From positions 10,941 to 74,940 of the forward strand of contig DAINDE010000009.1 in the NCBI GenBank assembly GCA_036732025.1: DNA of 64,000 nucleotides, read 5' to 3'. A program made the position numbers and the translations under genes. Origin of the DNA: Rhodocyclaceae bacterium. GTDB lineage: Bacteria; Pseudomonadota; Gammaproteobacteria; Burkholderiales; Rhodocyclaceae. The notes under the pieces are model-generated. The model worked only from the letters and a program-made list of their open reading frames with translations, did not search any database and was not told where the DNA came from. Shown here piece by piece: positions 21,220 through 37,086 of this stretch. Every line of letters begins with the position of its first letter. The stretch's first letter is position 1.

Positions 21220-21259
21220 TTGACAACTCATGTCGATATAACTACGATTATCGACATGA
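21220..21259 (+). promoter_or_regulatory. candidate sigma-70 promoter with an embedded perfect 11-bp inverted-repeat operator
   Basis: TTGACA 21220-21225, a 17-nt spacer, then TACGAT 21243-21248. The inverted repeat TCATGTCGATA (21228-21238) / TATCGACATGA (21249-21259) with a 10-bp spacer straddles the -10 and covers the ATG at 21256. Confidence 0.6.
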
Positions 21260-21567
21260 AGTCCGACTACAGCCGCGCCCTCCCTGCCGAATGGAAACCC
21301 ATGTCCAAGGTGTTCACCGCCCTGGGCGACGAGCATCGGCAGCGCATCCTGCTACTTTTCGAGGCTGGGGAGCGGCTCAACGTCGGGCAGATCGCCGAGG
21401 TGTCCACCCTTACCCGCTCCACCGTCTCCCACCACCTCAAGATCCTGCGCGAGGCCGAGGTGCTGGCTTCCGAGAAGATCGGCAAGGAGGTCTGGTTCTG
21501 GATCAACCGGTCCTATCTGGAGGAAGTGCTGGGCAACGTGCTGGACTACGTGCGGGAAAGCGCCTGA
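21256..21567 (+). CDS. ArsR/SmtB-family transcriptional regulator lacking cysteines
   Basis: 103 aa from ATG 21256. FTALGDEHRQRILLLF...LNVGQIAEVSTLTRSTVSHHLKILREAEVL is the winged-HTH of the ArsR family. The sequence contains no Cys, so classical thiolate metal sensing is unlikely. Confidence 0.85.
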   Translation: MKSDYSRALPAEWKPMSKVFTALGDEHRQRILLLFEAGERLNVGQIAEVSTLTRSTVSHHLKILREAEVLASEKIGKEVWFWINRSYLEEVLGNVLDYVRESA

Positions 21568-21662
21568 AATTTTTTTTTGTTCAAATATATCGAAATACGT
21601 ATGTATATCGTTACTTATGTGGAATGCTTCGTTTATAGTGCCGACGGGAGGGAATTGACCGT

Positions 21663-23804
21663 ATGCGTTCGCTGATCAAACCGTTGTTGCGCGGCCTGTG
21701 CCGCCTTTTGTTCCGGGTCCGGGTCGAGGGCCTGACCCGGGAATTCGCCGCCGACCGCCTGTTGGTGGTGGCCAATCACGAATCCTTTCTCGATGGCCTG
21801 CTGCTCGGGCTCTTCCTGCCCATCGACCCGGTCTTCGTGGTCCATACCGGGGTGGCCAACGACTGGCTCTTCCGCCTGCTGCTCTCGCAGGTGGATTACC
21901 TGGCGGTGGACCCCACCAGCCCCATGGCCATGAAGAAGGTCATCCGCCTGCTGGAAACCGGCCGGCCGGTGGTCATCTTCCCGGAAGGGCGCATCACTAC
22001 CACGGGCAGCCTGATGAAGGTCTACGACGGCCCCGCCTTCGTCGCCGCCAAGACCGGCGCCACGGTGCTGCCGGTGCGCCTGGACGGGCCTTCCCGCAGC
22101 TACTTCTCGCGGGTCTCGGGCAAGCATCCCCGGGTATTCTTCCCCAAGGTGCGGCTCAGCGTGCTGCCGGCGACCACCATCCCCATGCCGGAAGCGCCCA
22201 CCGCCAAGCTGCGCCGGCGCAAGGCCGGCGAGGCCATGCGCCGGCTGATGCAGGAGATGATCTTCGCCTCCCGCCCGCAGCAGACGCTGTTCAGCGCCCT
22301 GTGCGACGCCGCCGATGTTTTCGGCAGGCAGCGCCGGGTGCTGGAGGACATGAAGCAGATCGAGTATTCCTACAACGACCTGCTCAAGATGGCCCTCATG
22401 CTCACCCGCCTGGTGGAGCGCCACACTGCGGCCAGCGAGCGGGTCGGCCTGCTGCTGCCCAACCTGGCCCCCACCCTGGGGCTGCTCATCGGCCTTACCG
22501 CCCGCCGCCGGGTGCCGGCCATGCTCAACTACACCGCCGGCGTCGACGCCATGCAGGCGGCGTGCACGGCGGCGGAAATCCGCACCATCGTCACCTCCCG
22601 GGCCTTTGTCGAGCAGGCCAAGCTGGGCGACAAGCTGGCGGCCCTCGCCGGCATCCAGTTCCTCTACCTGGAAGACCTGCGCGAGGCCATCGGCCTCGGC
22701 GACAAGCTCTGGCTGATGGCCTGGGCCATCCACCGGCCGCGGGCCTTCGAGCTGCCCACCTCGCCGGAGGAAGCCGCCGTGGTGCTGTTCACCTCCGGCT
22801 CCGAGGGCAAGCCCAAGGGCGTGGTGCTGCCGCACCGGGCCATCCTCGCCAACATCGCCCAGGTGCGGGCGGTGATCGACTTCTCGGTGGACGACAAGGT
22901 CTTGAACGCCCTGCCGGTCTTCCACTCCTTCGGCCTCACCGCCGGGGCGCTGCTGCCGGTGCTCACCGGCGCCAGCCTCTTCCTCTACCCGACGCCGCTG
23001 CACTACCGCATCATCCCCGAGCTGGCCTACGACCGGAACTGCACGGTGCTCTTCGGCACCTCCACCTTCCTCGGCAACTACGCCAAGTTCGCCCACCCCT
23101 ACGACTTCTACCGCCTGCGCTACGTGGTGGCCGGCGCCGAGAAGCTCTCCGAGGCCGTGCGCAACACCTGGTTCGAGAAATTCGGCATCCGCATCTTCGA
23201 GGGTTACGGCGCCACCGAGACCGCCCCCGTGCTGGCGGTGAACACTCCCATGGCCTACCGCACCGGCACCGTCGGCAACCTGCTGCCGGGCATCGCGGCC
23301 AGGCTGCTGCCGGTGCCCGGCATCGAGCGCGGCGGCATCCTCCACGTGCGCGGCCCCAACGTCATGGCCGGCTACCTCAAGGCCGACGCCCCGGGTCTGC
23401 TGCAACCGCCGGTCTCCGAGGCGGGCGAGGGCTGGTACGAGACGGGCGACGTGGTGGAGCTCGACGACGAGGGCTTCGTCAAGATCGTCGGTCGCGTCAA
23501 GCGCTTCGCCAAGATCGCCGGTGAGATGGTCAGCCTGGAAGTGGTGGAAAAGCTGGCCGTCGCCTCCTCCCCGGCCCAGGCCCACGCCGCGTCGAGCCAG
23601 CCCGACGCCGCCAAGGGCGAGGCCCTGGTGCTGTTCACCACCGACGGCGGGCTGTCCCGCGAACTGCTGGCGGCCAAGGCGCGGGAGCTGGGCATCCCGG
23701 AACTGGCGGTGCCGCGCAAGATCCACAAGGTCGATTCCCTGCCGCTGCTGGGCACCGGCAAGGTGGATTATCTGACCCTGAAGCGCCTGGCCGAGGGCGT
23801 CTGA
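21663..23804 (+). CDS. aas: bifunctional 2-acyl-glycerophospholipid acyltransferase / acyl-[ACP] synthetase
   Basis: 713 aa. The N-terminal PlsC-type HX4D box is NHESFLDG with FPEGRITTTG. The C-terminal adenylate-forming domain has FTSGSEGKPKGV and GYGATETAP. The architecture is identical to E. coli Aas. Confidence 0.9.
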   Translation: MRSLIKPLLRGLCRLLFRVRVEGLTREFAADRLLVVANHESFLDGLLLGLFLPIDPVFVVHTGVANDWLFRLLLSQVDYLAVDPTSPMAMKKVIRLLETGRPVVIFPEGRITTTGSLMKVYDGPAFVAAKTGATVLPVRLDGPSRSYFSRVSGKHPRVFFPKVRLSVLPATTIPMPEAPTAKLRRRKAGEAMRRLMQEMIFASRPQQTLFSALCDAADVFGRQRRVLEDMKQIEYSYNDLLKMALMLTRLVERHTAASERVGLLLPNLAPTLGLLIGLTARRRVPAMLNYTAGVDAMQAACTAAEIRTIVTSRAFVEQAKLGDKLAALAGIQFLYLEDLREAIGLGDKLWLMAWAIHRPRAFELPTSPEEAAVVLFTSGSEGKPKGVVLPHRAILANIAQVRAVIDFSVDDKVLNALPVFHSFGLTAGALLPVLTGASLFLYPTPLHYRIIPELAYDRNCTVLFGTSTFLGNYAKFAHPYDFYRLRYVVAGAEKLSEAVRNTWFEKFGIRIFEGYGATETAPVLAVNTPMAYRTGTVGNLLPGIAARLLPVPGIERGGILHVRGPNVMAGYLKADAPGLLQPPVSEAGEGWYETGDVVELDDEGFVKIVGRVKRFAKIAGEMVSLEVVEKLAVASSPAQAHAASSQPDAAKGEALVLFTTDGGLSRELLAAKARELGIPELAVPRKIHKVDSLPLLGTGKVDYLTLKRLAEGV

Positions 23805-23808
23805 CGCC

Positions 23809-25047
23809 ATGGACTCCCGCAGGGCTCCCCCTTCTCCCCGCCGGCGCCGTTTCTTGGGCATGCTCGCCGGCACCGCCGCCGGCTGGGCGGCAGCGCGGCC
23901 CTTGCTGGTCAATCCCTGCCGCGCCGCCCTGCCGCCGGAGTTCGCCGCCAGCCCCTGGCTCGCCCGGGCGTGGGCGGGGCTCGACCCGGCCCAGGTCTGG
24001 GACTGCCACGTCCATGTCGCCGGCACCGGCGACGGCGGCAGCGGCATCGAAATCGGCCCCCAGCTCTCCTCCTGGCTCTACCCGGTGCAATACACCCAGC
24101 GCCTCTTCTACATGAACGCCGGCTGCGCCCACGACGCCCCGGGCCGGGTGGACGCCAGCTATGCCGCCCGCCTGCGCAACCTGGTGGAGGGCATGCCCGC
24201 CGGCTTCAAGGCGCTGCTCTTCGCCTTCGAGCGCTTCCACGACGAAGCCGGCCGGCCGGTGCCCGAGCACATGGCCTTCCATGTCCCCGACGCCTACGCC
24301 CGCTGGCTGGCTGCGGAATTCCCGGCGGGTTTCGAATGGGCGGCCTCCATCCACCCCTACCGGCCGGATGCCGTGGATGCCCTGCAGGCGGCCATCGCCG
24401 GCGGTGCCCGCGCCGTCAAGTGGCTGCCGGCGGCCATGGGCATGGACCCGGCTTCGCCCAAGTGCGACGCCTTCTACCGGGTGCTGGCCGAGGCCCGGCT
24501 GTCCCTCATCGTCCATTGCGGCGAAGAAAAGGCGGTCAAGGGCGGCGATACCCAGCACCTGGGCAACCCCCTCCTGCTGCGCCGCGCCCTCGACGCCGGC
24601 GTCAAGGTCGTAGTCGCCCATTGCGCCACCATCGGCGAGGACATCGACCTCGACGCCGGTAGCGCCGGGCCGCGGCGGGCGAGCTTCGACCTCTTCGCCC
24701 GCCTGATGGCCGAACCCCGCGCCAAGGACCGGCTCTACGGCGACATTTCCGCCATCGTCCTGCGCAACCGCGACAGCGAGCGTATCAAGGCGCTCCTGCA
24801 ACGCGGCGAGTGGCACCCGCGCCTGCTCAACGGCTCCGATTACCCGCTCCCCGGCATCCTGCCCATCGTCTCGCCGGCCGCGCTGGCCCGGGCCGGGCTG
24901 CTGCCCGCCGAGGCGGTTGCCGACCTCGAAGGCATCCGCGAGCACAACCCCCTGCTCTTCGACCTGGCGGTCAAGCGCCTACTGGCCTGGGAAGGGCAGT
25001 CCTTCCCGACGGCGGTGTTCGAGACGCGGCGGGTGTTCCAGGTTTGA
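23809..25047 (+). CDS. Tat-exported metal-dependent amidohydrolase (TIM-barrel, amidohydrolase_2-like)
   Basis: 412 aa. Twin-arginine signal SPRRRRFLGMLAGTAAG, HxH metal motif DCHVHV and later conserved His/Asp (IVHCGEE, VAHC, GSDYP). Starts 4 nt after the aas stop. Confidence 0.8.
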   Translation: MDSRRAPPSPRRRRFLGMLAGTAAGWAAARPLLVNPCRAALPPEFAASPWLARAWAGLDPAQVWDCHVHVAGTGDGGSGIEIGPQLSSWLYPVQYTQRLFYMNAGCAHDAPGRVDASYAARLRNLVEGMPAGFKALLFAFERFHDEAGRPVPEHMAFHVPDAYARWLAAEFPAGFEWAASIHPYRPDAVDALQAAIAGGARAVKWLPAAMGMDPASPKCDAFYRVLAEARLSLIVHCGEEKAVKGGDTQHLGNPLLLRRALDAGVKVVVAHCATIGEDIDLDAGSAGPRRASFDLFARLMAEPRAKDRLYGDISAIVLRNRDSERIKALLQRGEWHPRLLNGSDYPLPGILPIVSPAALARAGLLPAEAVADLEGIREHNPLLFDLAVKRLLAWEGQSFPTAVFETRRVFQV

Positions 25048-25082: not shown

Positions 25083-26738
25083 ATGAACAACATCCTGTCC
25101 GCATCGCGTCTGGCCCGTTTCTTCATCACCGTGGCGGGTGCCTGGGCGGTGGCGCCGGCCAGCCTTTCCGCCGCGACCATCGAGAGCGCCGTGGCTACCG
25201 GCAATCTCGGCTTGTTTGGCGCGGCCGATTTTCGCCTGGCGACGGGCCGCTGTACCGACTGCCCCGCTGAAAAGCAGGCCATGTGGTATTTCGGGGACGA
25301 TACGGTGGCGGTCCCCAAGGCCGGGGCAGGGGGATTCTCGCCCCGGCTCAGGGCGCAGGAGGACGTCCGTGAGTGGCAGGTACGACGGAGTGGCCGGGAG
25401 GGGGCGGAGCGGCCATCTCCGGTGTGGATCGGTTCGCCGGAGAAAGCCGCTGGCTGGACCCTGGCCGATGACGGCGCCAGTATGCTCGGCCGGGATGGCA
25501 GTGCCCGCCCGTTTGCCCTGGTTCCCAAGATCGAGGCGAATCGCTCCTATTTCGATGCCGCCAGCCGAAGCTATTTCGCCGGCCGTCCCCTGATCCTGCG
25601 GGGCCGCACGGAGGGCGGTCGCTTTGTGGCCCGAACGCTATGGCCGGAGGATTTTGCCCTGGACAACCCGCCGGCGGCGCCCCTCGGCGCCGGTGAAACG
25701 CTGGCCGGCCTGGTACGGGCGGAGGACGGCGGCGCACGGGCCCCCCTTGCCGCCCGGGTACTCTGGCAAAAGGACGGGGGCAAGCCGGTGGCGCTTGCCG
25801 GAAAGCCGGTCCTCACCTTCATGCTCAACGGTGCCCAGGGCGACGACGACGAAGCCCACGGCGGCCACTTCGCCATCGCCACCGGGCGCTTCGGCCCCCA
25901 CGGGGAGTGGGGCGACTGGCTGGTGAACAACTTCTACGGTCTCGATTCCTACAGCGAAAAGGGCATCGTGGCGTCCATGCTGCCCATGGATGCCTACATG
26001 GGCGACCTGAACTCAGGACAGTCCTGGTACCGTCCCTCCCACATGCTGGTGGCGGTGCTCAAGGATGAACGGGCGGCGCGGGAGTACCAGGGGGCCATTG
26101 CCCGGGTTTTCACCCATTTCTACCGTCATGACTTCGTCTATCGCCACGCCACCGCCAATTGCGCCGGCATCAGCCTGGAAACCCTGCGCACCCTGGGCTG
26201 GAACATTCCCAAGGAGGGCGCGACCAATCGCCTGAAGGCTGTCGTGGCGCTGCCCTACATGGCCATCAAGGAGGGCAGCCTGGAGAGCGGCAAGAAAGCC
26301 TACGACTACCTGTCCGCGGAAGTGACCGATCTTTATCCCTTCGTCGCCTTCGACGCCATCGGCCGCGACCTGCTGGGCCGCGTCACCCGGGGTGGCGCCC
26401 ATGGGGGGCTGGAGCAATGGCTGGCCGAGGATGTGGAGGCGCTGGTTTTCGTGCGCATTCCCCAGTTTCCCTCGTCCCGGGCTTTCGGCCGGGCGCCGGT
26501 GGCGTCCTTTGACGAATACATGAGCCGCGTCCCCGAGGACCGGGAGAAATGGCAGGTAGTGCCGGTACCGCCGCGGCCCTTCCCGCCGGAGATGAAGGAT
26601 GCCGCTGCGCCCGCCGACGAATGGGAGCCGTCCTCCTACGCTGTCGCCGCCTATGGCGGATTCTTCGGCCTGGCGTCGGTGGCCGTGGTCCGCCGGCGCA
26701 AGGCGAAGGCCGGCAAGGGGAAAGGAGGCCGGAAATGA
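25083..26738 (+). CDS. exported, C-terminally membrane-anchored hypothetical protein with a His...Asn-Cys signature
   Basis: 551 aa from ATG 25083; the upstream part of the 642-aa track ORF overlaps the amidohydrolase. Signal peptide MNNILSASRLARFFITVAGAWAVAPASLSA. Conserved-looking EAHGGHFAIATG and YRHATANCAGISLETL. C-terminal TM AVAAYGGFFGLASVAVV plus a basic tail. Confidence 0.75.
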   Translation: MNNILSASRLARFFITVAGAWAVAPASLSAATIESAVATGNLGLFGAADFRLATGRCTDCPAEKQAMWYFGDDTVAVPKAGAGGFSPRLRAQEDVREWQVRRSGREGAERPSPVWIGSPEKAAGWTLADDGASMLGRDGSARPFALVPKIEANRSYFDAASRSYFAGRPLILRGRTEGGRFVARTLWPEDFALDNPPAAPLGAGETLAGLVRAEDGGARAPLAARVLWQKDGGKPVALAGKPVLTFMLNGAQGDDDEAHGGHFAIATGRFGPHGEWGDWLVNNFYGLDSYSEKGIVASMLPMDAYMGDLNSGQSWYRPSHMLVAVLKDERAAREYQGAIARVFTHFYRHDFVYRHATANCAGISLETLRTLGWNIPKEGATNRLKAVVALPYMAIKEGSLESGKKAYDYLSAEVTDLYPFVAFDAIGRDLLGRVTRGGAHGGLEQWLAEDVEALVFVRIPQFPSSRAFGRAPVASFDEYMSRVPEDREKWQVVPVPPRPFPPEMKDAAAPADEWEPSSYAVAAYGGFFGLASVAVVRRRKAKAGKGKGGRK

Positions 26739-28618
26739 GCAGCCAGTTCCAGTTGCTGCAGGAGCGCCGCTTCCGGCCCTTCTTCTTCACCCAGTTCCTG
26801 GGGGCCTTCAACGACAACGTCTTCAAGACCGCCCTGATCACCCTGGTGACCTTTCGTGCCGGGCAACTGACCGACATCGACGGCAAGACCCTGGCAACCT
26901 TGCTGCCGGGGCTCTTCATCCTGCCCTTCTTCCTCTTTTCCGCCACCAGCGGACAGATCGCCGACAAATTCGAAAAATCCGCCGTCGCCCGGGCGGTCAA
27001 GGTCTTCGAGATCGGCATCATGTTGCTCGCCGCCTGGGGTTTCCTCAACAACAGCCTGTGGCCCCTGGTGGGCGCCCTGTTCCTGATGGGCGTACATTCG
27101 ACCCTGTTCGGGCCGGTGAAATACTCCTACCTGCCCCAGCACCTCAGGGAAGAGGAACTGGTCGGCGGCAACGGCATGATCGAGATGGGAACCTTCGTCG
27201 CCATCCTGGTGGGGGAGATCCTCGGCGCCTGGCTGGCCACCTCAAGCTTCGGCCCCGGCCTTACCGCCGCCGTGGTGGTGGGGGTGGCGGTGGCAGGCTA
27301 CTGGGTGAGCCGGAGCATTCCCCTGTCGCCCGCCGCCGACCCGGGCCTGAAGATCAACTGGAACCCGGTCACGGAAACCTGGAACAACCTGCGCTTTGCC
27401 CATGGCAACCGGACCGTGTGGCTTTCCCTCCTGGGCATCTCCTGGTTCTGGTTCTACGGGGCTACGGTGCTGGCCCAGTTCCCCACCTACGCCAAGGAGG
27501 TACTCCATGGCGACGAGAGCGTTTTCATCCTCCTGCTGGCGGTATTCTCCTTCGGCATCGGCGCCGGTTCGCTCCTCTGCGAAAAGCTCTCCGGGCACAA
27601 GGTGGAGATCGGCCTGGTTCCCTTCGGCGCCATCGGCCTCACGGTCTTCGGCGTCGAACTCTACTTCGCCACGCCGGGAGGCCTGGCGCCGACGGAGCAG
27701 TGGAACTGGTCGGCCTTCCTCGGCCAGGCAGCACACTGGCGCGTGCTTGCCGACGTGGTCCTGCTCGGGCTCTTCGGCGGCTTCTACATCGTTCCCCTCT
27801 ATGCCCTGATCCAGACCCGCAGCGAGAAGAGCCACCAGTCCCGGGTCATCGCCGCCAACAACATCCTCAACGCCTTGTTCATGGTGGTCTCGGCCCTGGT
27901 GTCGATGGTGCTGTTCCAGCTTGGGCTGACCATTCCGCAGCTATTCCTGGCGACGGCGCTGTTCAACGCGGTGGTGGCGATCTACATCTATTCGCTGGTG
28001 CCGGAATTTCTCCTGCGCTTCATCGTCTGGATGCTGATCCATACCATCTACCGCCTCGACTGCCGTGGCGTCGAGGAACAGGTGCCGGACCAGGGCGGCG
28101 CCCTTATCGTCTGCAACCACGTGAGCTTCGTCGACGCCCTGGTGATCGCCGCCGCCTGCCGTCGTCCGATCCGCTTCATCACCGACCACAATGTCTTCCG
28201 GCTGCCGATCCTGAACTTCGTATTCCGGGAATCCCGGGCCATTCCCATCGCTTCCGCCAAGGAAGACCCGGCGATGATGGAGCGGGCCTTCGACGAAGCC
28301 GCCCGCGCCCTGGCGGCGGGCGAGCTGGTCGGTATCTTTCCCGAGGGGAAGGTGAGCGAGGACGGGGATATCCACACCTTCCGCCCGGGGTTTCGCCGTA
28401 TCCTGGAGCGCAGTCCGGCGCCGGTGGTGCCCCTGGCCCTGCGCGGCCTGTGGGGGAGCTTCTTTTCCCGGGTGGAGGGCAGCGCCATGAAGCGGCCGTT
28501 CCGCCGGGGGATGTTCTCGCGCATCGCCCTGGTGGCGGGGACGCCCATTCCGCCGGCGGAGGCATCGCCGGAGCGCCTGCAGGCGGCGGTGACGGCCCTG
28601 CGGGGCGAGCAACGCTAA
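26735..28618 (+). CDS. lplT: lysophospholipid transporter LplT (MFS) fused to a C-terminal PlsC-type acyltransferase
   Basis: 627 aa from ATG 26735 (ATGA overlap with the upstream stop). MSSQFQLLQERRFRPFFFTQFLGAFNDNVFK and 12 TM-like segments are typical of LplT. The C-terminal domain has the HX4D box NHVSFVDA and FPEGKVSEDG. Confidence 0.85.
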   Translation: MSSQFQLLQERRFRPFFFTQFLGAFNDNVFKTALITLVTFRAGQLTDIDGKTLATLLPGLFILPFFLFSATSGQIADKFEKSAVARAVKVFEIGIMLLAAWGFLNNSLWPLVGALFLMGVHSTLFGPVKYSYLPQHLREEELVGGNGMIEMGTFVAILVGEILGAWLATSSFGPGLTAAVVVGVAVAGYWVSRSIPLSPAADPGLKINWNPVTETWNNLRFAHGNRTVWLSLLGISWFWFYGATVLAQFPTYAKEVLHGDESVFILLLAVFSFGIGAGSLLCEKLSGHKVEIGLVPFGAIGLTVFGVELYFATPGGLAPTEQWNWSAFLGQAAHWRVLADVVLLGLFGGFYIVPLYALIQTRSEKSHQSRVIAANNILNALFMVVSALVSMVLFQLGLTIPQLFLATALFNAVVAIYIYSLVPEFLLRFIVWMLIHTIYRLDCRGVEEQVPDQGGALIVCNHVSFVDALVIAAACRRPIRFITDHNVFRLPILNFVFRESRAIPIASAKEDPAMMERAFDEAARALAAGELVGIFPEGKVSEDGDIHTFRPGFRRILERSPAPVVPLALRGLWGSFFSRVEGSAMKRPFRRGMFSRIALVAGTPIPPAEASPERLQAAVTALRGEQR

Positions 28619-28918: not shown

Positions 28919-31642
28919 ATGTGGCTGGTCGGCATGATCGTGGGGCTGGTGCTGGGGGCGCCCTTCGGCAGCGAAGCGGCGGTGGGCGGGGCGCTCATGG
29001 GCCTGCTGGCGGGCGTGGTTGCCGGATCGCTGCGCAAGCCGCAGGAAGGCGAGACCACGGCGGCCACGGCGCAGCGCCTGCAGTTGCTGGAGCAGCAGGT
29101 GGCCTGGCTGCATCGGGAAACCCAGCGCCTGCGGGGCGAACTGGCGGCGTTGCGGGGAGGCGAGGCGCCTGCCGGGGCCACGTCGCCCCCGGCGGAGGTG
29201 CCGCCAGAGGCTATGCCCGAAACGCCCCCGGCCGTTGCCGAAGCGCCGGCCGTCTTCATCGACGAGACGCCGACCCGGCCGGGCATCGATCTGCCGGCCG
29301 CCGAGCCGGCGCCAGCGGTGCGGCCCGGGCCGGCCCCGGTGCCACCGGAGCCGACCCTCTGGCAGCGGCTCATGGCCGGCAACCCCCTGGCCAAGATCGG
29401 CGTCGTCCTGCTCTTCTTCGGCGTCGCCTCAGCCCTGCGGCTGGCGGCGGACTACGGCTTCCTGCCGGTACCGTTGCGCCTGCTGCTGGGAGCGGTGGCG
29501 GGGACGGCGATGATCGCCTTCGGCTGGCACAAGGTGCGCCAGGGCGGCCACTTCGCCTTCGCCATCGCCCTCCAGGGGGGCGGCTTCGCCATCCTCTACC
29601 TGATCGTCTACTTCATGCTGGCCCGCTACGGCCTGCTCGGGCCGACGCCGTCCTTCGCCCTCTTCGCCATTCTCGGTGTGGTCTGCGTGCTCCTGGCCGC
29701 CGCCCAGGATGGCGTGGTGCTGGCGGTGTTCGGCCTGGCCGGCGCCTTCGCCGCGCCGGTGCTGGCCTCCACCGGCAGTGGCGAGCCCCTGGGCCTCTTC
29801 GGTTACTTCGTCCTGCTCAACGCCTTCATCGTCGGCGTCTCCTGGTTCAAGGCCTGGCGGCCGCTCAACGTCACCGGCTTCTTCTTCACCCTCGGCGTCG
29901 GCGTGGCCTGGGCCATGCAGCATTACCACGCCGGCCACCACGACGTGTGCCAGGGCTTCCTCATCTTCTTCTGGGCGCTCTACGCCGTGACGCCAGTGGC
30001 CATGGCCCTCTTCCGGGCGCCGGGCTGGGCGGGGTGGAGCGACGCCACCCTGGTCTTCGGCACGCCCCTGGTGGGCTTCGCCCTGCAATCGCAACTGGCG
30101 GCGGACCGCTACGAACTGGCCTGGGCGGCCTTCGCCGCGGCGCTCGCCTATGGCGCCCTGTGGGGCCTGCTCTTCCGCCGGGGCGAAGAAGAAAGCCGCC
30201 TGCTGGAGCGCTGCCAGCTCGGCCTGGCCATCGCCTTCGCCACCCTGGCGGTGCCGCTTGCCTTCGGCGTCCAGGTGACGGCAGCCTTCTGGGCCCTGGA
30301 GGGCGTCGCCGTACTGTGGTTCGGCGTGGCGCAAGCCCGGCGCCTGGCCATGGCCACCGGCGCCCTGCTGCAGGGGGCGGCCGGCGCCTATTTCCTCTAC
30401 GGCCTGGAGCGGATGCACACCGCCCTGCCGGTGATCAACGACGTCTGCCTGGGGGCCGTGCTCCTGGCCGGGGCCGGCTTCGCCAGTGCCCGCCTGTTGC
30501 GCCGCTTCGCCGAGGGGCCGGCGGCGGGGGCGCTGCTGTGGGCCTTCGCCTGGTGGTGCTTCGCCGGCGGCTTCGAGCTCGACCGCCTTGCCTCCCCATC
30601 CCTCGGCGTGCCGCTCATGCTCGCCTACGTCGCCGGCTCCCTGGCGGCCCTGGAAATCCTCGGCCGGAGCGAGGGCTGGCGGGCGGCCCGCCACCTATCG
30701 TTGCTGCTCCTGCCCGCTCTCTGGCTGGCGGCGGCCTCCACCTTCGATCACGACCACCATTTCCTGGCCGGCCTGATGGTCATCGTCCTGCCCCTGGCCC
30801 TGGGGCTTCATTACTGGGTACTCGCCCGGCAGGAGGCGGACGAAGCGGCCCTGTGGCCGACGCTGCGCCACGTGGGCGGCTTCTGGCTCGCCATGGCGCT
30901 GGTTACCGTGGAACTGGCCTGGCTGGGCGACCGCCTGGCGCCGGGGGTACGGCTGTGGCCGCTGCTCGCCGCCGCCGTCGGCCCGGCCCTGGGCCTCTGG
31001 GCGGCGCTCGCCGGCGAGCGCCGGCAACTACCGCCGGTGGCCGGCCACGGCTTCGCCTACCTGGGCTTCGGGGCGCTGCTGCCGGCGGTGTTCCTGGCCG
31101 GCTGGTCCGTCTTCGCCAACTTCGACCATGCCGGGGGCGGTTCTGGCCTGCCCTACGTGCCTATCCTCAATCCCTTCGACCTGGTGCAACTGGCCGCCAT
31201 GGGCGCGCTTTTCGCCTGGTTGTGCAAACTTGACGAAGAACCCATGGCCGGCATGCCGGTGCCGCGACCCGCCTGGGTGGGCGTCCTCGCCTTCATCTGG
31301 GTGAGCTGCCTCGCCGCCCGCATTGCTCACCATTGGGGCGGCGTTCCCTTCACCGGCCATCACCTGTGGCAGTCCACCCTGCTGCAGGCGCTGCTGACGC
31401 TCTTGTGGACAGCGCTCGCCATCGCCGCCATGATCGCCGCCACCCGGGTCGGGGTGCGCCGCCTTTGGCAGGGGGGCTTCGCCCTGCTGGCGGTGGTGGG
31501 GGCCAAGCTGATGCTGGTCGATCTGGCCAACGCCGGTACCCTGGTGTGGACCGGCTCCCTCATCGGCGTCGCCCTGCTGGTGTTGGCCGCCGGCTACTTC
31601 GCCCCGGCGCCGCCGGCGGCCGACAAGGAGAAAACGACATGA
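28919..31642 (+). CDS. DUF2339-type polytopic membrane protein
   Basis: 907 aa. N-terminal TM, coiled coil (QRLQLLEQQVAWLHRETQRLRGELAAL) and a Pro-rich linker. These are followed by more than 15 predicted TM helices starting NPLAKIGVVLLFFGVASALRLAADYG. The family name is from memory. Confidence 0.75.
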   Translation: MWLVGMIVGLVLGAPFGSEAAVGGALMGLLAGVVAGSLRKPQEGETTAATAQRLQLLEQQVAWLHRETQRLRGELAALRGGEAPAGATSPPAEVPPEAMPETPPAVAEAPAVFIDETPTRPGIDLPAAEPAPAVRPGPAPVPPEPTLWQRLMAGNPLAKIGVVLLFFGVASALRLAADYGFLPVPLRLLLGAVAGTAMIAFGWHKVRQGGHFAFAIALQGGGFAILYLIVYFMLARYGLLGPTPSFALFAILGVVCVLLAAAQDGVVLAVFGLAGAFAAPVLASTGSGEPLGLFGYFVLLNAFIVGVSWFKAWRPLNVTGFFFTLGVGVAWAMQHYHAGHHDVCQGFLIFFWALYAVTPVAMALFRAPGWAGWSDATLVFGTPLVGFALQSQLAADRYELAWAAFAAALAYGALWGLLFRRGEEESRLLERCQLGLAIAFATLAVPLAFGVQVTAAFWALEGVAVLWFGVAQARRLAMATGALLQGAAGAYFLYGLERMHTALPVINDVCLGAVLLAGAGFASARLLRRFAEGPAAGALLWAFAWWCFAGGFELDRLASPSLGVPLMLAYVAGSLAALEILGRSEGWRAARHLSLLLLPALWLAAASTFDHDHHFLAGLMVIVLPLALGLHYWVLARQEADEAALWPTLRHVGGFWLAMALVTVELAWLGDRLAPGVRLWPLLAAAVGPALGLWAALAGERRQLPPVAGHGFAYLGFGALLPAVFLAGWSVFANFDHAGGGSGLPYVPILNPFDLVQLAAMGALFAWLCKLDEEPMAGMPVPRPAWVGVLAFIWVSCLAARIAHHWGGVPFTGHHLWQSTLLQALLTLLWTALAIAAMIAATRVGVRRLWQGGFALLAVVGAKLMLVDLANAGTLVWTGSLIGVALLVLAAGYFAPAPPAADKEKTT

Positions 31643-31950
31643 ACGAATTGCTCAGAGTGCTCTGGATCGTTGCCAAGGGCATCTTACTGCTCGTCGGCGT
31701 CGCCGCCATCCTGGCCGGCGGCATCTGCGGCGCCATCCTGACCCCCGGCGCCCTCGGCCACGACAGCATGGCGCGGGAGTTCCTGATGATTGCCGGCATC
31801 GTCTTCGTCGTCGGCCTGGCCATCGCCATTCCCGCCTGGAAGAGCCTGCGCCGCGACCACCGGGAGGCGCGGGCCAGGCTGGACGCGGAGCTGGAGGCGA
31901 TCCGGCGGCGAGGGGACGGATCGGGCCCCGGCGACGGAGGTGGGCAATAA
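31639..31950 (+). CDS. two-TM miniprotein, paralogue 2 (103 aa)
   Basis: ATGA overlap with the DUF2339 stop. MNELLRVLWIVAKGILLLVGVAAILAGGIC (Cys30), a loop, a second TM, SLRRD, then a charged tail. Only the last 103 codons of the 205-aa track ORF are credible. Confidence 0.7.
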   Translation: MNELLRVLWIVAKGILLLVGVAAILAGGICGAILTPGALGHDSMAREFLMIAGIVFVVGLAIAIPAWKSLRRDHREARARLDAELEAIRRRGDGSGPGDGGGQ

Positions 31951-32184
31951 ATGGATTTCCTCAAGTTCCTCTTCAAGGCCTGTGTCCTGATCCTGGGGCT
32001 GTTGCTCATCGCCGGCGGCGGCCTGGTGAGTCTGTGCGGGGTGCTGGTCCACGACGGCTCCGTCCTGCTCCTCGGATTCTTGCCGCTTGCACTCGGCATC
32101 CTTGGTCTGGTGTTTGTTTTCCGGGGTAAGCCGACGCAGGATTCCGGGGCCGGGTCGCCCAACAGCCCGGAGAATCTGCCTTGA
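31951..32184 (+). CDS. two-TM miniprotein, paralogue 3 (77 aa)
   Basis: The ATG immediately follows the TAA of the previous gene. MDFLKFLFKACVLILGLLLIAGGGLVSLC (Cys29), a loop, a second TM, FRGK, then a Ser/Pro/Gly tail. Confidence 0.7.
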   Translation: MDFLKFLFKACVLILGLLLIAGGGLVSLCGVLVHDGSVLLLGFLPLALGILGLVFVFRGKPTQDSGAGSPNSPENLP

Positions 32185-32930
32185 TCGCTCCGCAATACGC
32201 AGCCTTTGTACATGGCTGCTTTGAAATGCTGGCCCTGGCCGCCGGGGTCGCCTACTACCGCCGCCTGCGGGCGCGGGCGGGGGGCGGCGATCTGCTGCAC
32301 GGCGCCGAGTTCGCCGTCGCCGCCGGCTGCATCTTCGGCGCTGCCCTGGGCAACAAGCTGGTCTTCTGGGCCGAGGTGCCCCACCTGCTGCCGCTCTATT
32401 GGGACAGGCCGGAAGCCTGGCTGGGTGGGCAGTCCATGGTGGGTGGCCTGCTCGGCGGGCTGATCGGCGTCGAGATCGCCAAGAAGCTCACCGGGGTTGT
32501 CCGCTCCACCGGCGATGCCTTCGTCTTCCCCGTCCTCCTCGGGCTGATGATCGGCCGCGTCGGCTGCTTCCTTGCCGGGCTGGCCGACGGTACCTATGGT
32601 CTGCCGACGGGGCTGCCCTGGGGAGTGGATTTCGGCGACGGTATTCGCCGGCATCCGACCCAGCTCTACGAAATCGCTTTCGCCGGGGTGATGTGGCTTG
32701 CCTTGCGGTATTTGCAACCGTCCCTTGCCGGGCAACCCGGCTTGCTCTTCAAGACAATGCTCTGCGCCTATCTCGTCTGGCGGCTGGCGATCGATTCCCT
32801 CAAGCCCGTGCCCTTTGCTTATCCCTTCGGGGCTTCCGGCATCCAGTGGGTTTGCCTGGTTGCCCTGGTCGCCTATCTTCCGCTGGCCTGGCGGCAATGG
32901 CAGCGGCTCAGGCACTTGGCCACTGCCTGA
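32181..32930 (+). CDS. diverged prolipoprotein diacylglyceryl transferase (Lgt) family protein
   Basis: 249 aa with TTG start overlapping the upstream stop; an alternative ATG is at 32226. Three blocks are collinear with the Lgt motifs GGMSFHGGLIG, GRLGNFINGE and RHPSQLYE as I recall them from E. coli: GGQSMVGGLLGGLIG, GRVGCFLAGLADG and RRHPTQLYE. Confidence 0.8.
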   Translation: MIAPQYAAFVHGCFEMLALAAGVAYYRRLRARAGGGDLLHGAEFAVAAGCIFGAALGNKLVFWAEVPHLLPLYWDRPEAWLGGQSMVGGLLGGLIGVEIAKKLTGVVRSTGDAFVFPVLLGLMIGRVGCFLAGLADGTYGLPTGLPWGVDFGDGIRRHPTQLYEIAFAGVMWLALRYLQPSLAGQPGLLFKTMLCAYLVWRLAIDSLKPVPFAYPFGASGIQWVCLVALVAYLPLAWRQWQRLRHLATA

Positions 32931-33007: not shown

Positions 33008-34432
33008 ATGACCCGCAAAAACCGCCCCTGGCTCTTTTACGACACCACCGCCTCCGTCTGCACCACCTGCCTGCGCCAGGTGGAGGCCAAGGTGGTCATC
33101 AAGGGGGACGAGGTCTTCCTCGACAAGTGGTGCCCGGCCCACGGCAGCGAGCGGGTGCTGATCGCCGACGATGCCGATTACTACCGCCTGGGCCGCGAGG
33201 TGTACGTCAAGGCGCCGGAAATGCCGGAGCGCTTCAACACGGAAATGCGCCACGGTTGCCCTTACGACTGCGGCCTTTGCCCGGACCACATGCAGCATTC
33301 CTGCCTCTCGGTGGTGGAGATCACCGAGCACTGCAACCTGCGCTGCCCGGTGTGCTACGCGGAATCGGGGCCGGAGCGGCAGGCCCATCGGTCGCTGGCG
33401 GAGGTGGAGGCCATGCTCGACACCGTCGTCGCCAACGAGGGGGAGCCGGATGTCGTGCAGCTTTCCGGCGGCGAGCCGACCCTGCACCCGGACTTCTTCG
33501 CCATCCTCGACGCCGCCAAGGCCCGGCCCATCCGCCATCTGATGATCAATACCAACGGCCTGCGGCTGGCCAGGGAGCCGGACTTCGTCGCCCGCCTGGC
33601 GGCCTACAGGCCGGGGATCGAGATCTATCTGCAGTTCGATTCCCTGCGGGACGAGGTTCTGCAACAGTTGCGGGGCGCCGATCTGGCCGAGATCCACGAG
33701 CGGGCCCTGGCCAACCTGGAAGCCCACGGCATCTCGACCACCCTCGTCATGACCGTCAAGCGCGGGGTGAACGATGGCGAGATCGGCGCCGTCATCCGCC
33801 ACGGCCTCAAATACCGCTGCGTGCGCGGCGTCACCCTGCAGCCGGTGTCCGACGCCGGCCGCAACCTGGATTTCGACGCTCGCCGCCATCGCCTGACGGT
33901 GAGCGAGGTGCGCCGCCGCGTCGCCGAGCAGTCGGCGTTGTTCAGCCTCGACGACATCGTTCCCGTTCCCTGCAACCCGGACACCCTGGCCATGGGCTAC
34001 GCCGTCAAGCTGGGCGGCGAGGTGCTGCCCCTGACCCGCCACCTGGGGCCGGAAGCCCTGCTGGCCGGGCCGCGCAACACCATCGTCTTCGAGCGCGATC
34101 CGGCGATGAAGGAGGCCGTGTTCAAGCTCTTCTCCACCAACCACTCGCCGGAGACGCAAGCCAACTGCCTGTCGGCGCTCCTCTGTTGCCTGCCGACGGT
34201 GGCGGCGCCGGAGCTGAGCTACGAAAACGTCTTCCGCGTCCTCATCGTCCAGTTCATGGACGCCGCCAACCTGGACCTGCGGGCGTTGAAGAAATCCTGC
34301 GTCCATTTCGCCCAGCCCGACGGGCGCCTTATCCCCTTCGAGGCCTACAATCTTTTCTACCGGGGCGAACGGGCGGCGAAGACGGCGGAGATCCAGGCGG
34401 AAATCCGCGAGGCGGCCATGCGGCGCCGCTGA
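33008..34432 (+). CDS. radical SAM enzyme of the MJ0619 / tetraether-synthase (Tes, GDGT-MAS)-like class
   Basis: 474 aa from ATG 33008. N-terminal Cys/His knuckle SVCTTC...WCPAHG, auxiliary cluster motif GCPYDCGLCPDHMQHSC and radical SAM CNLRCPVCYA (CX3CX2C). SAM-binding LSGGEPTLHPDF and C-terminal VQFMDAANLDLRALKKSCVHFAQPDGRLIPFEAYN. The subfamily call is from memory. Confidence 0.8.
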   Translation: MTRKNRPWLFYDTTASVCTTCLRQVEAKVVIKGDEVFLDKWCPAHGSERVLIADDADYYRLGREVYVKAPEMPERFNTEMRHGCPYDCGLCPDHMQHSCLSVVEITEHCNLRCPVCYAESGPERQAHRSLAEVEAMLDTVVANEGEPDVVQLSGGEPTLHPDFFAILDAAKARPIRHLMINTNGLRLAREPDFVARLAAYRPGIEIYLQFDSLRDEVLQQLRGADLAEIHERALANLEAHGISTTLVMTVKRGVNDGEIGAVIRHGLKYRCVRGVTLQPVSDAGRNLDFDARRHRLTVSEVRRRVAEQSALFSLDDIVPVPCNPDTLAMGYAVKLGGEVLPLTRHLGPEALLAGPRNTIVFERDPAMKEAVFKLFSTNHSPETQANCLSALLCCLPTVAAPELSYENVFRVLIVQFMDAANLDLRALKKSCVHFAQPDGRLIPFEAYNLFYRGERAAKTAEIQAEIREAAMRRR

Positions 34433-34517
34433 GCCTGGGTTTTTCCCGATTCCGGTGGGGGAACCTTTGCGCGAAGCTGTAGCCTGACACACTTCCCAGC
34501 TTTTGCCGCGCCACCCG

Positions 34518-35729
34518 ATGACTGACAACAAGCCCGCCTCCCTCGCTCCCGTCCTCCTCTTCGCCGCCGGCATCGTCTGCGTGGCCATGGGCATTCGCCA
34601 CACCTTCGGCCTCTTCCTGGCGCCGATGACCACGGATCACCAGTGGGGGCGGGAGGTGTTCTCCTTCGCCATCGCCCTGCAGAACCTGGCCTGGGGCGCC
34701 GCCCAGCCCTTCGCCGGGCTGCTCGCCGACCGCTACGGCGCCAAGCGGGTGTTGTGGGGCGGCGGCGTACTCTATGCCCTGGGCCTTGCCGGCATGGCCT
34801 GGGCCAGCAACGCCACCGGCTTTGCCGCCACCGCCGGCCTGCTCATCGGCCTGGCCCAGAGCGGCACCACCTACAGCGTCGTCTTCTCGGCCCTCGGCAA
34901 GCTGGTGCCGGCCAACCGCCAGAGCTGGGCCATGGGCCTGGTGGCGGCGGCGGGTTCCTTCGGCCAGTTCCTCATGGTGCCGGTGGGCTCCGGCCTCATC
35001 GGCGGCCTGGGCTGGTTCGGCACCCTGCTGGTCTTCGCCGGGGCGGCGCTGCTCATCCTGCCCCTCGGTTCGGCCCTGGCCAGGGGCCTGGCCCCGGGTG
35101 CCGCCAGCGCCGGCCAGACGGCGGGGGAGGCGATCCGCGAAGCGGTGCGGGAGAAGAGCTTCGTCTTCCTCATGGTCAGCTACTTCGTCTGCGGCTTCCA
35201 GGTGGTGTTCATCGGCGTGCACCTGCCCACCTACCTGCTGGACAAGGGGCTGTCGGGCAACGTGGGCATGACGGCCCTGGCCCTCATCGGCCTCTTCAAC
35301 ATCGCCGGCACCTATGCCGTGGGGCAACTGGGCACCCGCTTTCCCAAGCGCTACCTGCTGGCCGGCATCTACAGCCTGCGGAGCGTGGTCATCTCGGCCT
35401 TCCTGCTGCTGCCGCTGACGCCGTGGTCGGTCTATGTCTTCGCCGCCTGCATCGGCCTCCTCTGGCTGTCCACGGTGCCGCCGACCAACGCCATCGTCGC
35501 CCAGATCTTCGGCGTCCGCTTCCTCGGCATGCTTTCCGGCCTGGTTTTCTTCAGCCACCAGATCGGCAGCTTCCTGGGGGTCTGGCTGGGCGGGCGCCTG
35601 TTCGACGCCACCGGCTCCTACGACCTGGTGTGGGGCATCTGCATCGCCCTGGGCGTGCTGGCGGCGCTTTTCAATCTGCCCATCGACGAGCGCAGCCTGG
35701 CAAGCCGGCGGGCGGCCAGTACCGCTTGA
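34518..35729 (+). CDS. MFS transporter
   Basis: 403 aa from ATG 34518 (the track ORF starts at TTG 34503). Twelve hydrophobic segments and the loop motif [12 protein letters not shown]. Confidence 0.85.
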
Positions 35730-35746
35730 AGTCGTCATGGCCCGCC

Positions 35747-36655
35747 ATGGCCGGTAAAATGCCGGCCATGAACTGGAAAGCGATCAAGGAACGCCTCGAC
35801 CTCTACGAATGCCTGATGCGGCTGGACAAGCCCATCGGCATCCTGCTCCTCCTCTGGCCCACCCTGTGGGGCCTGTGGCTGTCCGCCCTGGGGCGGCCCG
35901 ACTGGGTGGTGGTGTGGATCTTCTGCCTGGGTACCGTGCTCATGCGCTCGGCGGGCTGCGTCATCAACGATTTCGCCGACCGGGATTTCGACCGCCACGT
36001 GGAGCGGACCAGGGAGCGCCCGCTCACCGCCGGCAAGGTCAGCGCCAAGGAGGCCCTCGTCCTCTTCGCCCTGCTTTCGCTGTCGGCCTTCGCCCTGGTG
36101 CTGCTCATGGGCAATTCGCTGGTCATCTGGCTGTCGGTGCCGGCCCTCTTTCTCGCCGCCAGCTACCCCTTCACCAAGCGCTTCTTCGCCATTCCCCAGG
36201 CCTACCTGGGCATCGCCTTCGGCTTCGGTATCCCCATGGCCTATGCCGCCCACCTCGGCGAGGTGCTGCCGGAAGCCTGGTGGCTGCTGCTGGCCAACGT
36301 CTTCTGGGCCATCGCCTACGATACCGAGTACGCAATGGTGGACCGGGAAGACGACCTCAAGATCGGCATCAAGACTTCGGCGTTGACCTTCGGCCGCTAC
36401 GACGTGGCCGCCGTCATGGCCTGCTACGCCGCGGCGCTGGCGCTCATTGCCTGGGTGGGCCACGGCCTCGACATGGGCTGGGCCTTCTACGCCGGCCTGG
36501 GTGTGGCGGCTGGCATCATGGGTTGGCACTACACCCTGATCCGGGGGCGCGAGCGCATGGCCTGCTTCCGGGCGTTTCTCAACAACAACTACGTCGGGGC
36601 GGCCATCTTCGGCGGTATCGTTCTCGATTTCCTGGTCTCGGGGAGGGCTTCCTGA
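35747..36655 (+). CDS. ubiA: 4-hydroxybenzoate polyprenyltransferase
   Basis: Tail of the 670-aa track [47 protein letters not shown] and [17 protein letters not shown] are the two Asp-rich UbiA motifs. In-frame ATGs occur at 35747, 35759 and 35768, so the start is uncertain. Confidence 0.9.
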
Positions 36656-37086
36656 TGCGTGGTTCAATCGTCGCCGGCTTGGTCATGCTGGCCGTTCCCC
36701 TGTCGCTCATGGCCGAGGATGCCCGGCAGCTGGCCAAGCTGCCCGACCCCGCCCGCGCTGCGCTGCGGGAGGAGATGGTGGGCAACCTCGTTGCCCTCAA
36801 CGAGGTGCTGGCCCTGCTGGCGGTCGGCCAGACCCGGGAAGCCGGCGAGGCGGCGGAAAGGAACCTGGGGGTCTCGGCCATGGGCCGGCATCGGGACAAG
36901 CCCTTCGAGGCCCGGCCGGGGCCCCACATGCCGCCGGCGATGCACGCCCTGGGCATGGAAGGGCACAAGGCCGCCAGCGAATTCGCCCGGCTGGCCCAGG
37001 CCGGCGACCGCGACGCGGCGCTGGCGGCGCTGCCTAAGCTGACAGGGGCCTGCGTGGCGTGCCACGCTTCCTGGCGGGTTCGCTGA
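36655..37086 (+). CDS. class II (cytochrome c-prime / four-helix-bundle type) c-type cytochrome, exported
   Basis: 143 aa. The ATG shares one nucleotide with the ubiA TGA (TGATG). Signal peptide, helical sequence and a single heme motif CVACH nine residues from the C-terminus, as in class II cytochromes c. Confidence 0.7.
   Translation: MRGSIVAGLVMLAVPLSLMAEDARQLAKLPDPARAALREEMVGNLVALNEVLALLAVGQTREAGEAAERNLGVSAMGRHRDKPFEARPGPHMPPAMHALGMEGHKAASEFARLAQAGDRDAALAALPKLTGACVACHASWRVR

Follow-up and report, generated by a model that had tools for sequence, protein, structure and literature searches.

Fourteen successive plus-strand genes occupy positions 21256 to 37086 of the DNA analyzed here, a 64,000-nucleotide stretch of a Rhodocyclaceae bacterium genome (assembly GCA_036732025.1, contig DAINDE010000009.1, positions 10,941 to 74,940) that we refer to as the window. 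Three units make up the array: a lysophospholipid retrieval and re-acylation operon of known type (block A); a trio made up of small one-cysteine membrane proteins (miniproteins), a diverged paralog of the membrane transferase Lgt (the Lgt-like protein), and a radical S-adenosylmethionine (radical SAM) enzyme (rSAM) related to Tes and GDGT-MAS (block C); and three neighboring genes encoding a major facilitator superfamily (MFS) transporter, UbiA, and a cytochrome c′-like protein. The members of block C very probably work as one functional unit, which is apparently an undescribed system of three genes that draws on known enzyme families and is widely distributed; in the open-access literature, we found no paper that describes an Lgt-like/radical SAM pairing (Lgt or diacylglyceryl together with radical SAM, tetraether, or glycerol dialkyl glycerol tetraether [GDGT]). 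A composite in which block A serves membrane repair, block C lipidates cysteines, and the remaining genes are bystanders is our best explanation of the array, and we judge it evenly balanced between right and wrong. The features are as follows.

21220 to 21259, plus strand: promoter-like site TTGACA-17-TACGAT with inverted repeat, a putative ArsR operator
21256 to 21567, plus strand: ArsR/SmtB-family regulator, block A (PF01022, NF033788)
21568 to 21662, plus strand: AT-rich 95-nt spacer with a second operator-like site, the probable aas promoter region
21663 to 23804, plus strand: Aas, block A (NF005959 equivalog; PlsC and AMP-binding domains)
23809 to 25047, plus strand: periplasmic hydrolase of the amidohydrolase fold (Amidohydro_2 type) with Tat signal (RR motif; PF04909 in orthologs)
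25083 to 26738, plus strand: exported 551-amino-acid (aa) protein with a C-terminal membrane helix (at least 2381 homologs)
26735 to 28618, plus strand: LplT (MFS) fused to a PlsC acyltransferase (MFS_1 and PF01553; NF005291 match)
28628 to 28900, plus strand: miniprotein 1, 90 aa, N-type Cys-helix, LFGGGA-C27 (ortholog in locus L003)
28919 to 31642, plus strand: DUF2339, an Arc3A-family polytopic membrane protein (PF10101, 481 bits)
31639 to 31950, plus strand: miniprotein 2, 103 aa, N-type Cys-helix, ILAGGI-C30
31951 to 32184, plus strand: miniprotein 3, 77 aa, N-type Cys-helix, GGLVSL-C29 (orthologs in L002 and L150)
32181 to 32930, plus strand: Lgt-like membrane transferase, a diverged paralog with invariant Cys129 (PF01790, 76.7 bits)
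33008 to 34432, plus strand: Tes/GDGT-MAS-like radical SAM enzyme, rSAM (Zn-ribbon and radical SAM domains, 14 conserved Cys)
34518 to 35729, plus strand: MFS transporter of the oxalate/formate-lactate type, a neighbor (family match)
35747 or 35768 to 36655, plus strand: UbiA, 4-hydroxybenzoate octaprenyltransferase (TIGR01474)
36655 to 37086, plus strand: cytochrome c′-like protein (PF01322 below cutoff; CxxCH)

The genes were identified by frame-specific GC3 and family searches (Pfam, NCBIfam) in DNA of about 68% GC, and coding-type GC3 and family matches mark all fourteen. All of these genes, the three miniproteins included, are also called in the public annotation of this DNA (GCA_000803445.1). 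Computed junctions are, in order, 95, 4, 35, −4, 9, 18, −4, 0, −4, 77, 85, 17/38, and −1 nt, and from the 551-aa gene through the Lgt-like gene every one is an overlap or a gap of at most 18 nt. These junctions equal those given in an earlier sequence-only reading of the window, whose family assignments also hold; its central proposal, that the fourteen genes are one self-contained lipidation and lysolipid-recycling cassette, is weighed below. A terminator-site scan found no intergenic terminator across the array, and intrinsic terminators proved uninformative as operon boundaries, since all 15 terminator-like sites are intragenic and their count is not above that of shuffled sequences.

Lgt-like and radical SAM genes form a conserved pair

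We scanned one genome per species with an alignment of Lgt-like homologs and found at least 504 stretches encoding a relative; 80 loci with 10-kb flanks and two genomes from protein look-ups made up a set of 82 loci (numbered with the prefix L), and the 14 window proteins were searched against all open reading frames (ORFs) of this set, with positions refined. In 74 of the 82 loci, the rSAM gene lies immediately downstream of the Lgt-like gene in the same orientation, and in one more the two are fused (75/82, spread over more than ten phyla); two of the remaining seven are contig ends. The two genes overlap or abut in 43 loci, and the fusion (L055, 9938 to 12214 of Verrucomicrobiota metagenome-assembled genome [MAG] contig JBEKGJ010000019.1) is one uninterrupted ORF in which about 50 aa link the two domains. 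Pairs were found in Proteobacteria, Acidobacteriota, Cyanobacteria, Bacteroidota, Planctomycetota, Verrucomicrobiota, Bacillota, Actinomycetota, Chloroflexota, and archaeal bins. Clustering all neighborhood ORFs against one another in search of further partners returned mainly alternative-frame shadows, and nothing outside the pair recurred in more than 16 loci.

Two archaeal-binned contigs carry the pair, one assigned to Halobacteriales (L079, with a C-type Cys-helix gene) and one to Thermoplasmatota (L072, where the contig ends at rSAM); horizontal transfer or mis-binning is possible in both cases, and according to the literature, Lgt has no known archaeal homologs. The two genes are split in an Azonexaceae MAG, the closest relative of the window, by 1.9 kb of inserted DNA (L003, 10817 to 12703) that looks like defense-type cargo; it encodes a PDC-S01-type ATPase of 390 aa (PADLOC, 296 bits) and a TIR-domain protein of 218 aa. 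No PADLOC defense family matches the Lgt-like protein, the miniproteins, DUF2339, the amidohydrolase, or the 551-aa protein, and the match of rSAM to PADLOC viperin models was set aside because it runs through the generic radical SAM core alone.

Small proteins with a single conserved cysteine accompany the pair

Miniproteins 1 to 3 share one architecture, consisting of a short basic N terminus, a helix ending in G-[G/F]-G-hydrophobic-C-G, a loop, a second helix, and a basic tail; by the positive-inside rule, the Cys is predicted to lie near the periplasmic end of an in-to-out helix, with the tail in the cytoplasm. A hidden Markov model (HMM) built from 32 sequences of this N-type and searched against the 18,130 ORFs of the 82 loci matched 44 ORFs at E ≤ 1e-3, 43 of them beside an Lgt-like/rSAM pair; the 44th is a miniprotein 1 ortholog upstream of DUF2339 in L003. 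In other phyla, a small protein of another family (C-type) directly follows rSAM, and its last helix reads L-L-[N/V/F]-[A/S/G]-[A/G/T/S]-C-[F/W]-G with 5 to 13 residues past the Cys, which is kept in all matches of the C-type HMM outside its training set. Together the two models find a Cys-helix gene in 54 of the 82 loci, and inspection adds at least 8. A RefSeq-annotated Bacteroidota plasmid likewise encodes an Lgt-family protein, a radical SAM protein, and a 64-aa protein ending in IGAGVCGSFF. The part of the earlier reading that grouped the miniproteins with the Lgt paralog and the radical SAM enzyme thus stands, being conserved widely, whereas their membership in a 14-gene cassette does not.

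To judge from its sequence contexts, the Cys-helix looks like a portable tag and not a fixed small protein. It also occurs N- or C-terminally on larger proteins of 314, 326, 239, and 237 aa (L054, 10952 to 12925; L015, 2571 to 3290; L060/L065, 12108 to 12821). In two Gallionellaceae loci, a conserved protein of 237 to 255 aa with no Pfam match lies between the miniprotein and the Lgt-like protein (L005, 9249 to 9962; L007, 5447 to 6214).

The Lgt-like protein is diverged from housekeeping Lgt

The Lgt-like protein matches Pfam LGT (PF01790) at 76.7 bits (cutoff, 24.9) but scores only 15 to 35 bits with the NCBIfam lgt models (TIGR00544, NF0007xx; cutoffs, 119 to 636), which marks it by sequence as a paralog and not the housekeeping enzyme. 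Its AlphaFold2 (AF2) model (pLDDT 85, pTM 0.82) has the seven-helix Lgt fold, and the only significant fold match in the PDB is Escherichia coli Lgt (5AZB; Foldseek E, 1.3e-4; TM, 0.56/0.51), with which it shares about 21% identity. We established residue correspondences by profile alignment to 5AZB and assessed conservation across 81 Lgt-like sequences from more than 10 phyla. R143, H196, Y235, and R239 of Lgt correspond to R126, H158, Y197, and R201, all 100% conserved, and the counterpart of E243 (position 205) is D or E; we take R143 and R239, and also Y235, H196, and E243, to be catalytic or essential in E. coli Lgt. Other positions depart from the E. coli enzyme: the counterpart of N146 is C129, invariant in 81/81 sequences, that of H103 is Val in 91%, that of E151 is Leu, and that of G154, placed by ungapped extension of the alignment, is Gly in just 32%. 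N146, G154, and H103 (signature HGGL) are reported to be essential in E. coli Lgt as well.

Lgt has an N-out/C-in topology, and its reaction releases glycerol-1-phosphate and no lysolipid. As with the E. coli enzyme, the candidate acceptor Cys of block C sits at the outer end of an in-to-out helix and follows small residues, but the acceptor motif is G-[G/F]-G-hydrophobic-C, and the canonical lipobox [LVI][ASTVI][GAS]C fits 0 of 32 N-type motifs and 8 of 29 C-type motifs. The pairing with a radical SAM enzyme is a further difference from E. coli Lgt. In the public annotation, the Lgt-like gene is 15 codons shorter at its start (234 aa; window 32181 to 32225, L165 8815). Conservation of H11 (at least 95% of the 81 sequences), F14, and E15 favors the TTG at 32181, which overlaps the stop codon of miniprotein 3.

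Relationships of the radical SAM enzyme

The rSAM protein combines an N-terminal Zn-ribbon (PF23545) and a radical SAM domain (PF04055) and has in common with Tes and GDGT-MAS the Zn-ribbon, the motif GCPYDCGLCP, the CxxxCxxC radical SAM core, and a C-terminal Cys-containing region. Four Cys groups (C18/C21/C42, C84/C88/C91/C99, C109/C113/C116, and C322/C393/C394/C431) are each conserved in at least 98% of 66 sequences, a pattern compatible with one mononuclear site and three clusters. Alignment with GDGT-MAS (7TOL) gives an E value of 4.5e-61 and leaves residues 323 to 398 unaligned. The score with the Tes equivalog NF045702 is 259.6 bits (cutoff, 450), and the best NCBIfam model is TrsS (336.8 bits; cutoff, 490). 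By these comparisons, rSAM is a clear GDGT-MAS/Tes homolog that falls below the NCBIfam cutoffs for both Tes and TrsS. Its remoter relatives (31 to 42% identity) pair with a methyltransferase and no Lgt-like protein, as on a Mycolicibacterium plasmid (L169) and a haloarchaeal Salinirubellus plasmid (L170), so that the Lgt-linked clade is distinct. Both of these radical SAM-methyltransferase pairs lie near thiol-redox genes (CcdA, disulfide oxidoreductase, peroxiredoxins). TrsS-type relatives share the superfamily with rSAM, and we rejected TrsS as an explanation of the enzyme, as the literature only lists TrsS as a selenoprotein family, with no function.

Unlike the setting of Tes and GDGT-MAS, the hosts of rSAM are bacteria with ester-linked acyl lipids, and its genomic partners are an Lgt-like protein and a Cys-helix protein. 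Tes homologs of bacteria and halobacteria have been reported as functionally unassigned, and bacterial Tes has been proposed as a synthase of branched GDGTs (brGDGTs) or membrane-spanning lipids (MSLs) (PMC8941075), yet Tes homologs occur in just 3 of 14 acidobacteria that make iso-diabolic acid and correlate poorly with membrane-spanning lipids (PMC13159169). The Thermotoga membrane-spanning lipid synthase Mss supplies by analogy the chemistry proposed for rSAM, being a bacterial radical SAM enzyme that couples acyl tails (PMC13159169, PMC13459092). It is not of the Tes type, as T. maritima and T. ethanolicus carry Mss but yielded no Tes homolog (PMC13159169), and, unlike rSAM, it has no reported Lgt-like or Cys-protein partner.

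A proposed route to a tailored, protein-bound lipid

We propose that block C is an ancient, portable three-component module. The Lgt-like protein would bind a phosphoglycerolipid through its retained Arg pair and move the lipid moiety onto the miniprotein thiol; Cys129 possibly takes part in this transfer, perhaps as a covalent catalyst or by pairing with the Cys of the substrate. Thiol-directed transfer is favored because the phospholipid-binding arginines are kept, the Cys has a lipobox-like geometry, and the helix is portable in the manner of a tag. Docked on the cytoplasmic C terminus of the Lgt-like protein, rSAM would then activate a hydrocarbon tail of the held lipid, leading to C-C coupling, macrocyclization, or trans-leaflet cross-linking as in GDGT-MAS, and the result would be a micro-protein that carries a tailored lipid in covalent linkage. 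The L055 fusion puts rSAM on that same C terminus, in keeping with the N-out/C-in topology of Lgt, which suggests that it acts on what the Lgt-like protein holds, and by analogy with the Tes mechanism (PMC13459092), its target is most plausibly the hydrocarbon tail.

These proposals differ in strength. Cys lipidation by block C falls somewhat short of an even chance in our estimate, and lipid tail coupling is doubtful. The full scheme of a protein-bound lipid tailored by a radical SAM enzyme, in which the Lgt-like protein lipidates the Cys-helix tag and the Tes-like enzyme cross-links or cyclizes the tails, perhaps joining them to an opposite-leaflet lipid as a membrane-spanning anchor, is a tentative one, more likely wrong than right. 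Several points weigh against our best explanation. With N146, G154, and H103 lost, the Lgt-like protein may catalyze a different reaction; the N-type motif does not fit the lipobox; about 20 of the 82 loci have no Cys-helix gene by the detection used; the acceptor Cys is predicted at the periplasmic face, so that a cytoplasmic radical SAM enzyme could reach nothing of the substrate beyond its lipid tails or the helix's inner half; and the steps assigned to block C derive from comparison with characterized families. The adjacency of blocks A and C, confined to one class, could moreover be inherited synteny and not selected coupling.

Alternatively, the Lgt-like and Tes-like enzymes might make a free modified lipid (tail-coupled, macrocyclic, or membrane-spanning), with the Cys-helix proteins serving not as substrates but as accessory subunits, such as a scaffold, a redox or sulfur relay, or a regulator. 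The clear homology of rSAM to GDGT-MAS would fit such a product, as would an Lgt-like protein that keeps the phospholipid-binding Arg pair without N146 or G154 and a fusion that could represent a lipid-handing complex, and the idea that bacterial Tes is a brGDGT/MSL synthase has been raised before (PMC8941075). Yet all that is conserved in the third component is a single Cys with lipobox-like geometry, and its presence on N-terminal, C-terminal, or large proteins looks more like a tag than a subunit. The sparse occurrence of Tes homologs among acidobacteria that make iso-diabolic acid (PMC13159169) also speaks against a free spanning lipid. Nor are carriers like Azonexus, Nostoc, and Mucilaginibacter known for spanning lipids. 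On this balance we regard the free-lipid alternative as unlikely.

If the lipidation scheme proved correct, block C would represent the first protein-bound lipid tailored by radical SAM chemistry. It would add a new class to the post-translational lipid modifications, one shared by at least 500 species, and would give a function to a large clade of unexplained bacterial Tes homologs, possibly including some on archaeal-binned contigs. Such homologs are an open problem in lipid biogeochemistry, having been proposed as the missing brGDGT/MSL synthases despite a poor correlation with the lipids (PMC8941075, PMC13159169), and a large clade of them locked to an Lgt paralog and a one-cysteine membrane tag offers a concrete, testable alternative, in a three-gene unit small enough for heterologous expression. 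For lipoprotein biology, block C suggests that Lgt has given rise to another thiol-directed system, one that has a Cys in its active site and recognizes a motif other than the lipobox.

Blocks A and C are separable but recurrently adjacent

The sequence-only reading took the whole array as one pathway and proposed a gene-neighborhood analysis as its check. In that comparison the 14-gene array does not co-occur as a unit, while blocks A and C are each conserved, and they separate in both directions. Locus L001 has only a small protein, the Lgt-like protein, and rSAM, and the trio occurs without aas or lplT in 59/59 non-betaproteobacterial loci and in 8 betaproteobacterial ones; in Ferriphaselus, Massilia, Parachitinimonas, and a Burkholderiaceae MAG, it sits amid unrelated genes. 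Conversely, L083 has ArsR, Aas, Amidohydro_2, 551-aa, and LplT/PlsC genes followed by unrelated genes, with no Lgt-like or rSAM gene and with ubiA-ubiD 4 kb further on. Azonexus (L002) has both blocks without DUF2339 or the 551-aa gene, and its ubiA is 6 kb away. Within the 82 loci, Aas and ArsR are near block C only in Rhodocyclales-like loci, and DUF2339, MFS, and UbiA only in L003.

A second survey, anchored on LplT-PlsC, covered 80 metagenome loci. Its dominant layout is ArsR - LplT/PlsC - DUF2339: DUF2339 comes next after LplT-PlsC in 35 of the 62 loci with at least 1 kb downstream, and an ArsR gene precedes LplT-PlsC in 39 of 69 related loci. This survey reproduces the published Arc3 linkage, in which DUF2339 is recurrently adjacent to aas/lplT (PMC8926400). 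An Lgt-like gene lies downstream of LplT-PlsC in 1/80 loci (L150), together with a miniprotein. The earlier reading had offered chance juxtaposition of its sub-blocks as its own alternative; the blocks are indeed independent, but the DUF2339-aas/lplT adjacency is recurrent, which leaves that alternative only half right.

Blocks A and C are nonetheless neighbors more often than expected in one class. An LplT-type gene lies directly upstream of the miniprotein and Lgt-like genes in 15 of 23 betaproteobacterial loci (13 LplT-PlsC and 2 Gallionellaceae MFS-only LplT-like) in three layouts (Rhodocyclales, Sphaerotilaceae-type, and Gallionellaceae). Recurrence in three layouts is far above chance and argues for useful co-expression. 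The two blocks are not obligate partners, and their co-transcription, predicted here and in other Betaproteobacteria, probably reflects the service of both to membrane-lipid homeostasis.

The same recurrence could be taken to support a single dedicated pathway of all 14 genes (or from aas to rSAM), in which miniprotein lipidation generates a lysolipid that LplT-PlsC and Aas recycle. The tight junctions would suit it, and E. coli provides a well-established precedent, in which LplT and Aas recycle the lysophosphatidylethanolamine (lyso-PE) produced by Lnt (PMC8926400). Against such a pathway stand the occurrence of each block alone (L001, L083), the absence of both LplT and Aas from the neighborhood in 59/59 non-betaproteobacterial loci, the single module downstream among 80 LplT-PlsC relatives, and the lack of linkage of MFS, UbiA, and cytochrome c′. 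The claim that each lipidation and recycling step has a dedicated paralog here also fails: the array has no Lnt-like (CN-hydrolase) gene, and Lgt chemistry yields glycerol-1-phosphate and not lysolipid, so a loop that makes and recycles lysolipid is unsupported. We consider the single pathway improbable, and the three-unit composite remains the preferred reading. For genome scans, the lesson is that tight co-directional arrays can be mosaics whose conservation needs testing block by block.

It is scarcely credible that the array holds ordinary operons only, with a redundant housekeeping lgt and spurious or unrelated miniprotein ORFs: small hydrophobic ORFs are easily over-called at 68% GC and Pfam does label the Lgt-like protein LGT, but this account is already contradicted by the lgt equivalog scores, the invariance of Cys129, the adjacency of the pair, the near confinement of the miniprotein family to the Lgt-like/rSAM neighborhood in the HMM search, and the miniprotein genes themselves, which have GC3 of 0.81 to 0.87 and Shine-Dalgarno sites and are publicly annotated.

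Block A extends a known lysophospholipid repair system

Block A comprises ArsR, Aas, the amidohydrolase, the 551-aa protein, LplT-PlsC, and DUF2339. ArsR matches PF01022 and NF033788 (65.6 bits; cutoff, 55). The earlier reading began this gene at TTG 21220, which is an unlikely start because it belongs to the −35 hexamer of the promoter-like site TTGACA-17-TACGAT (21220 to 21248); ATG 21256 is the likelier one. A perfect 11-nt inverted repeat, TCATGTCGATA-N10-TATCGACATGA (21228 to 21259), takes in both the −10 box and the start codon of ArsR, and a related operator-like site (21586 to 21610) lies inside the unusually AT-rich 95-nt ArsR-aas spacer; both are plausible as putative ArsR operators.

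Aas exceeds the cutoff of its equivalog model (NF005959, 1003.9 bits; cutoff, 886) and has the PlsC plus AMP-binding architecture by Pfam. The LplT-PlsC fusion combines MFS_1 and PF01553 domains; it scores 111.5 bits with the LplT model NF008397 (cutoff, 297), and its N-terminal 585 residues score 564 bits with the LplT-PlsC-AAS fusion model NF005291 (positions 3 to 585; whole-model cutoff, 1349). DUF2339 (PF10101) covers the full model at 480.6 bits and in the window sits between miniprotein paralogs.

The amidohydrolase and the 551-aa protein are two exported, lineage-variable accessories of block A. The former has an HxH...H...H...D pattern and a conserved twin-arginine (RR) Tat motif; the window protein itself has no Pfam match, PF04909 being present in its orthologs, and a comparison with PDB sequences gave no match. 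The latter had been called an orphan in the sequence-only reading but has at least 2381 homologs (54 to 79% identity among the best 120 listed) that share the invariant motifs NGAQGDDDEAHGGHF and H..N-C-x-G. It has no Pfam or NCBIfam match, and its AF2 model, of moderate confidence (pLDDT 75), has no PDB fold match; on these grounds we rejected it as an Arc3B analog. A relationship to the ORF that follows the amidohydrolase in L023 was likewise rejected, as there is no similarity. Members of the 551-aa family occur both within aas-lplT operons (L083) and away from aas (L084, beside hydrogenase/complex-I-like genes).

In Pseudomonas aeruginosa, resistance to the phospholipase toxin Tle3 depends chiefly on Arc3A (DUF2339), which keeps lysophospholipids from accumulating (PMC8926400). 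The window resembles that system in its Aas equivalog, in an LplT-PlsC fusion like PA3267, and in the adjacent DUF2339 gene (PMC8926400). It differs in having ArsR-type regulation in place of Gac/Rsm, an extra periplasmic amidohydrolase and 551-aa protein, and DUF2339 inside a miniprotein array, and Pfam detects no Arc3B (PF13163) among the proteins of 21256 to 37086; Arc3A without Arc3B is found in many bacteria (PMC8926400). We propose that block A is an ArsR-controlled envelope-repair operon in which LplT would flip lysophospholipids inward, the fused PlsC domain and Aas would re-acylate them, and Arc3A, by analogy with P. aeruginosa, would limit lysophospholipid build-up under phospholipase attack. 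For envelope defense, the window holds the fullest ArsR-Aas-LplT/PlsC-Arc3A repair cluster yet seen, with two uncharacterized periplasmic partners.

Neighboring genes

The MFS, UbiA, and cytochrome c′ genes are unrelated neighbors belonging to a ubiA...ubiD locus and were rejected as pathway members on synteny. The MFS gene is beside block C only in L003. UbiA scores 330.4 bits with TIGR01474 (cutoff, 275.45), and a promoter-like site (35732 to 35760) precedes its gene. The cytochrome c′-like protein falls just below the PF01322 cutoff (24.1 versus 26.5 bits) and has a C-terminal CVACH (CxxCH). Synteny of ubiA and ubiD is found in L002, L083, and the window. In Azonexus (L002), the order ubiA, cytochrome c′-like gene, ubiD is uninterrupted, whereas in the window, ubiD (39853 to 41322) lies 2.8 kb beyond the array, separated from ubiA and cytochrome c′ by minus-strand c-di-GMP genes (EAL, 37037 to 38404; HD-GYP, 38409 to 39719). 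About 7 kb upstream of the array, positions 13094 to 14299 encode an outer-membrane transporter of hydrophobic compounds of the FadL/TodX type.

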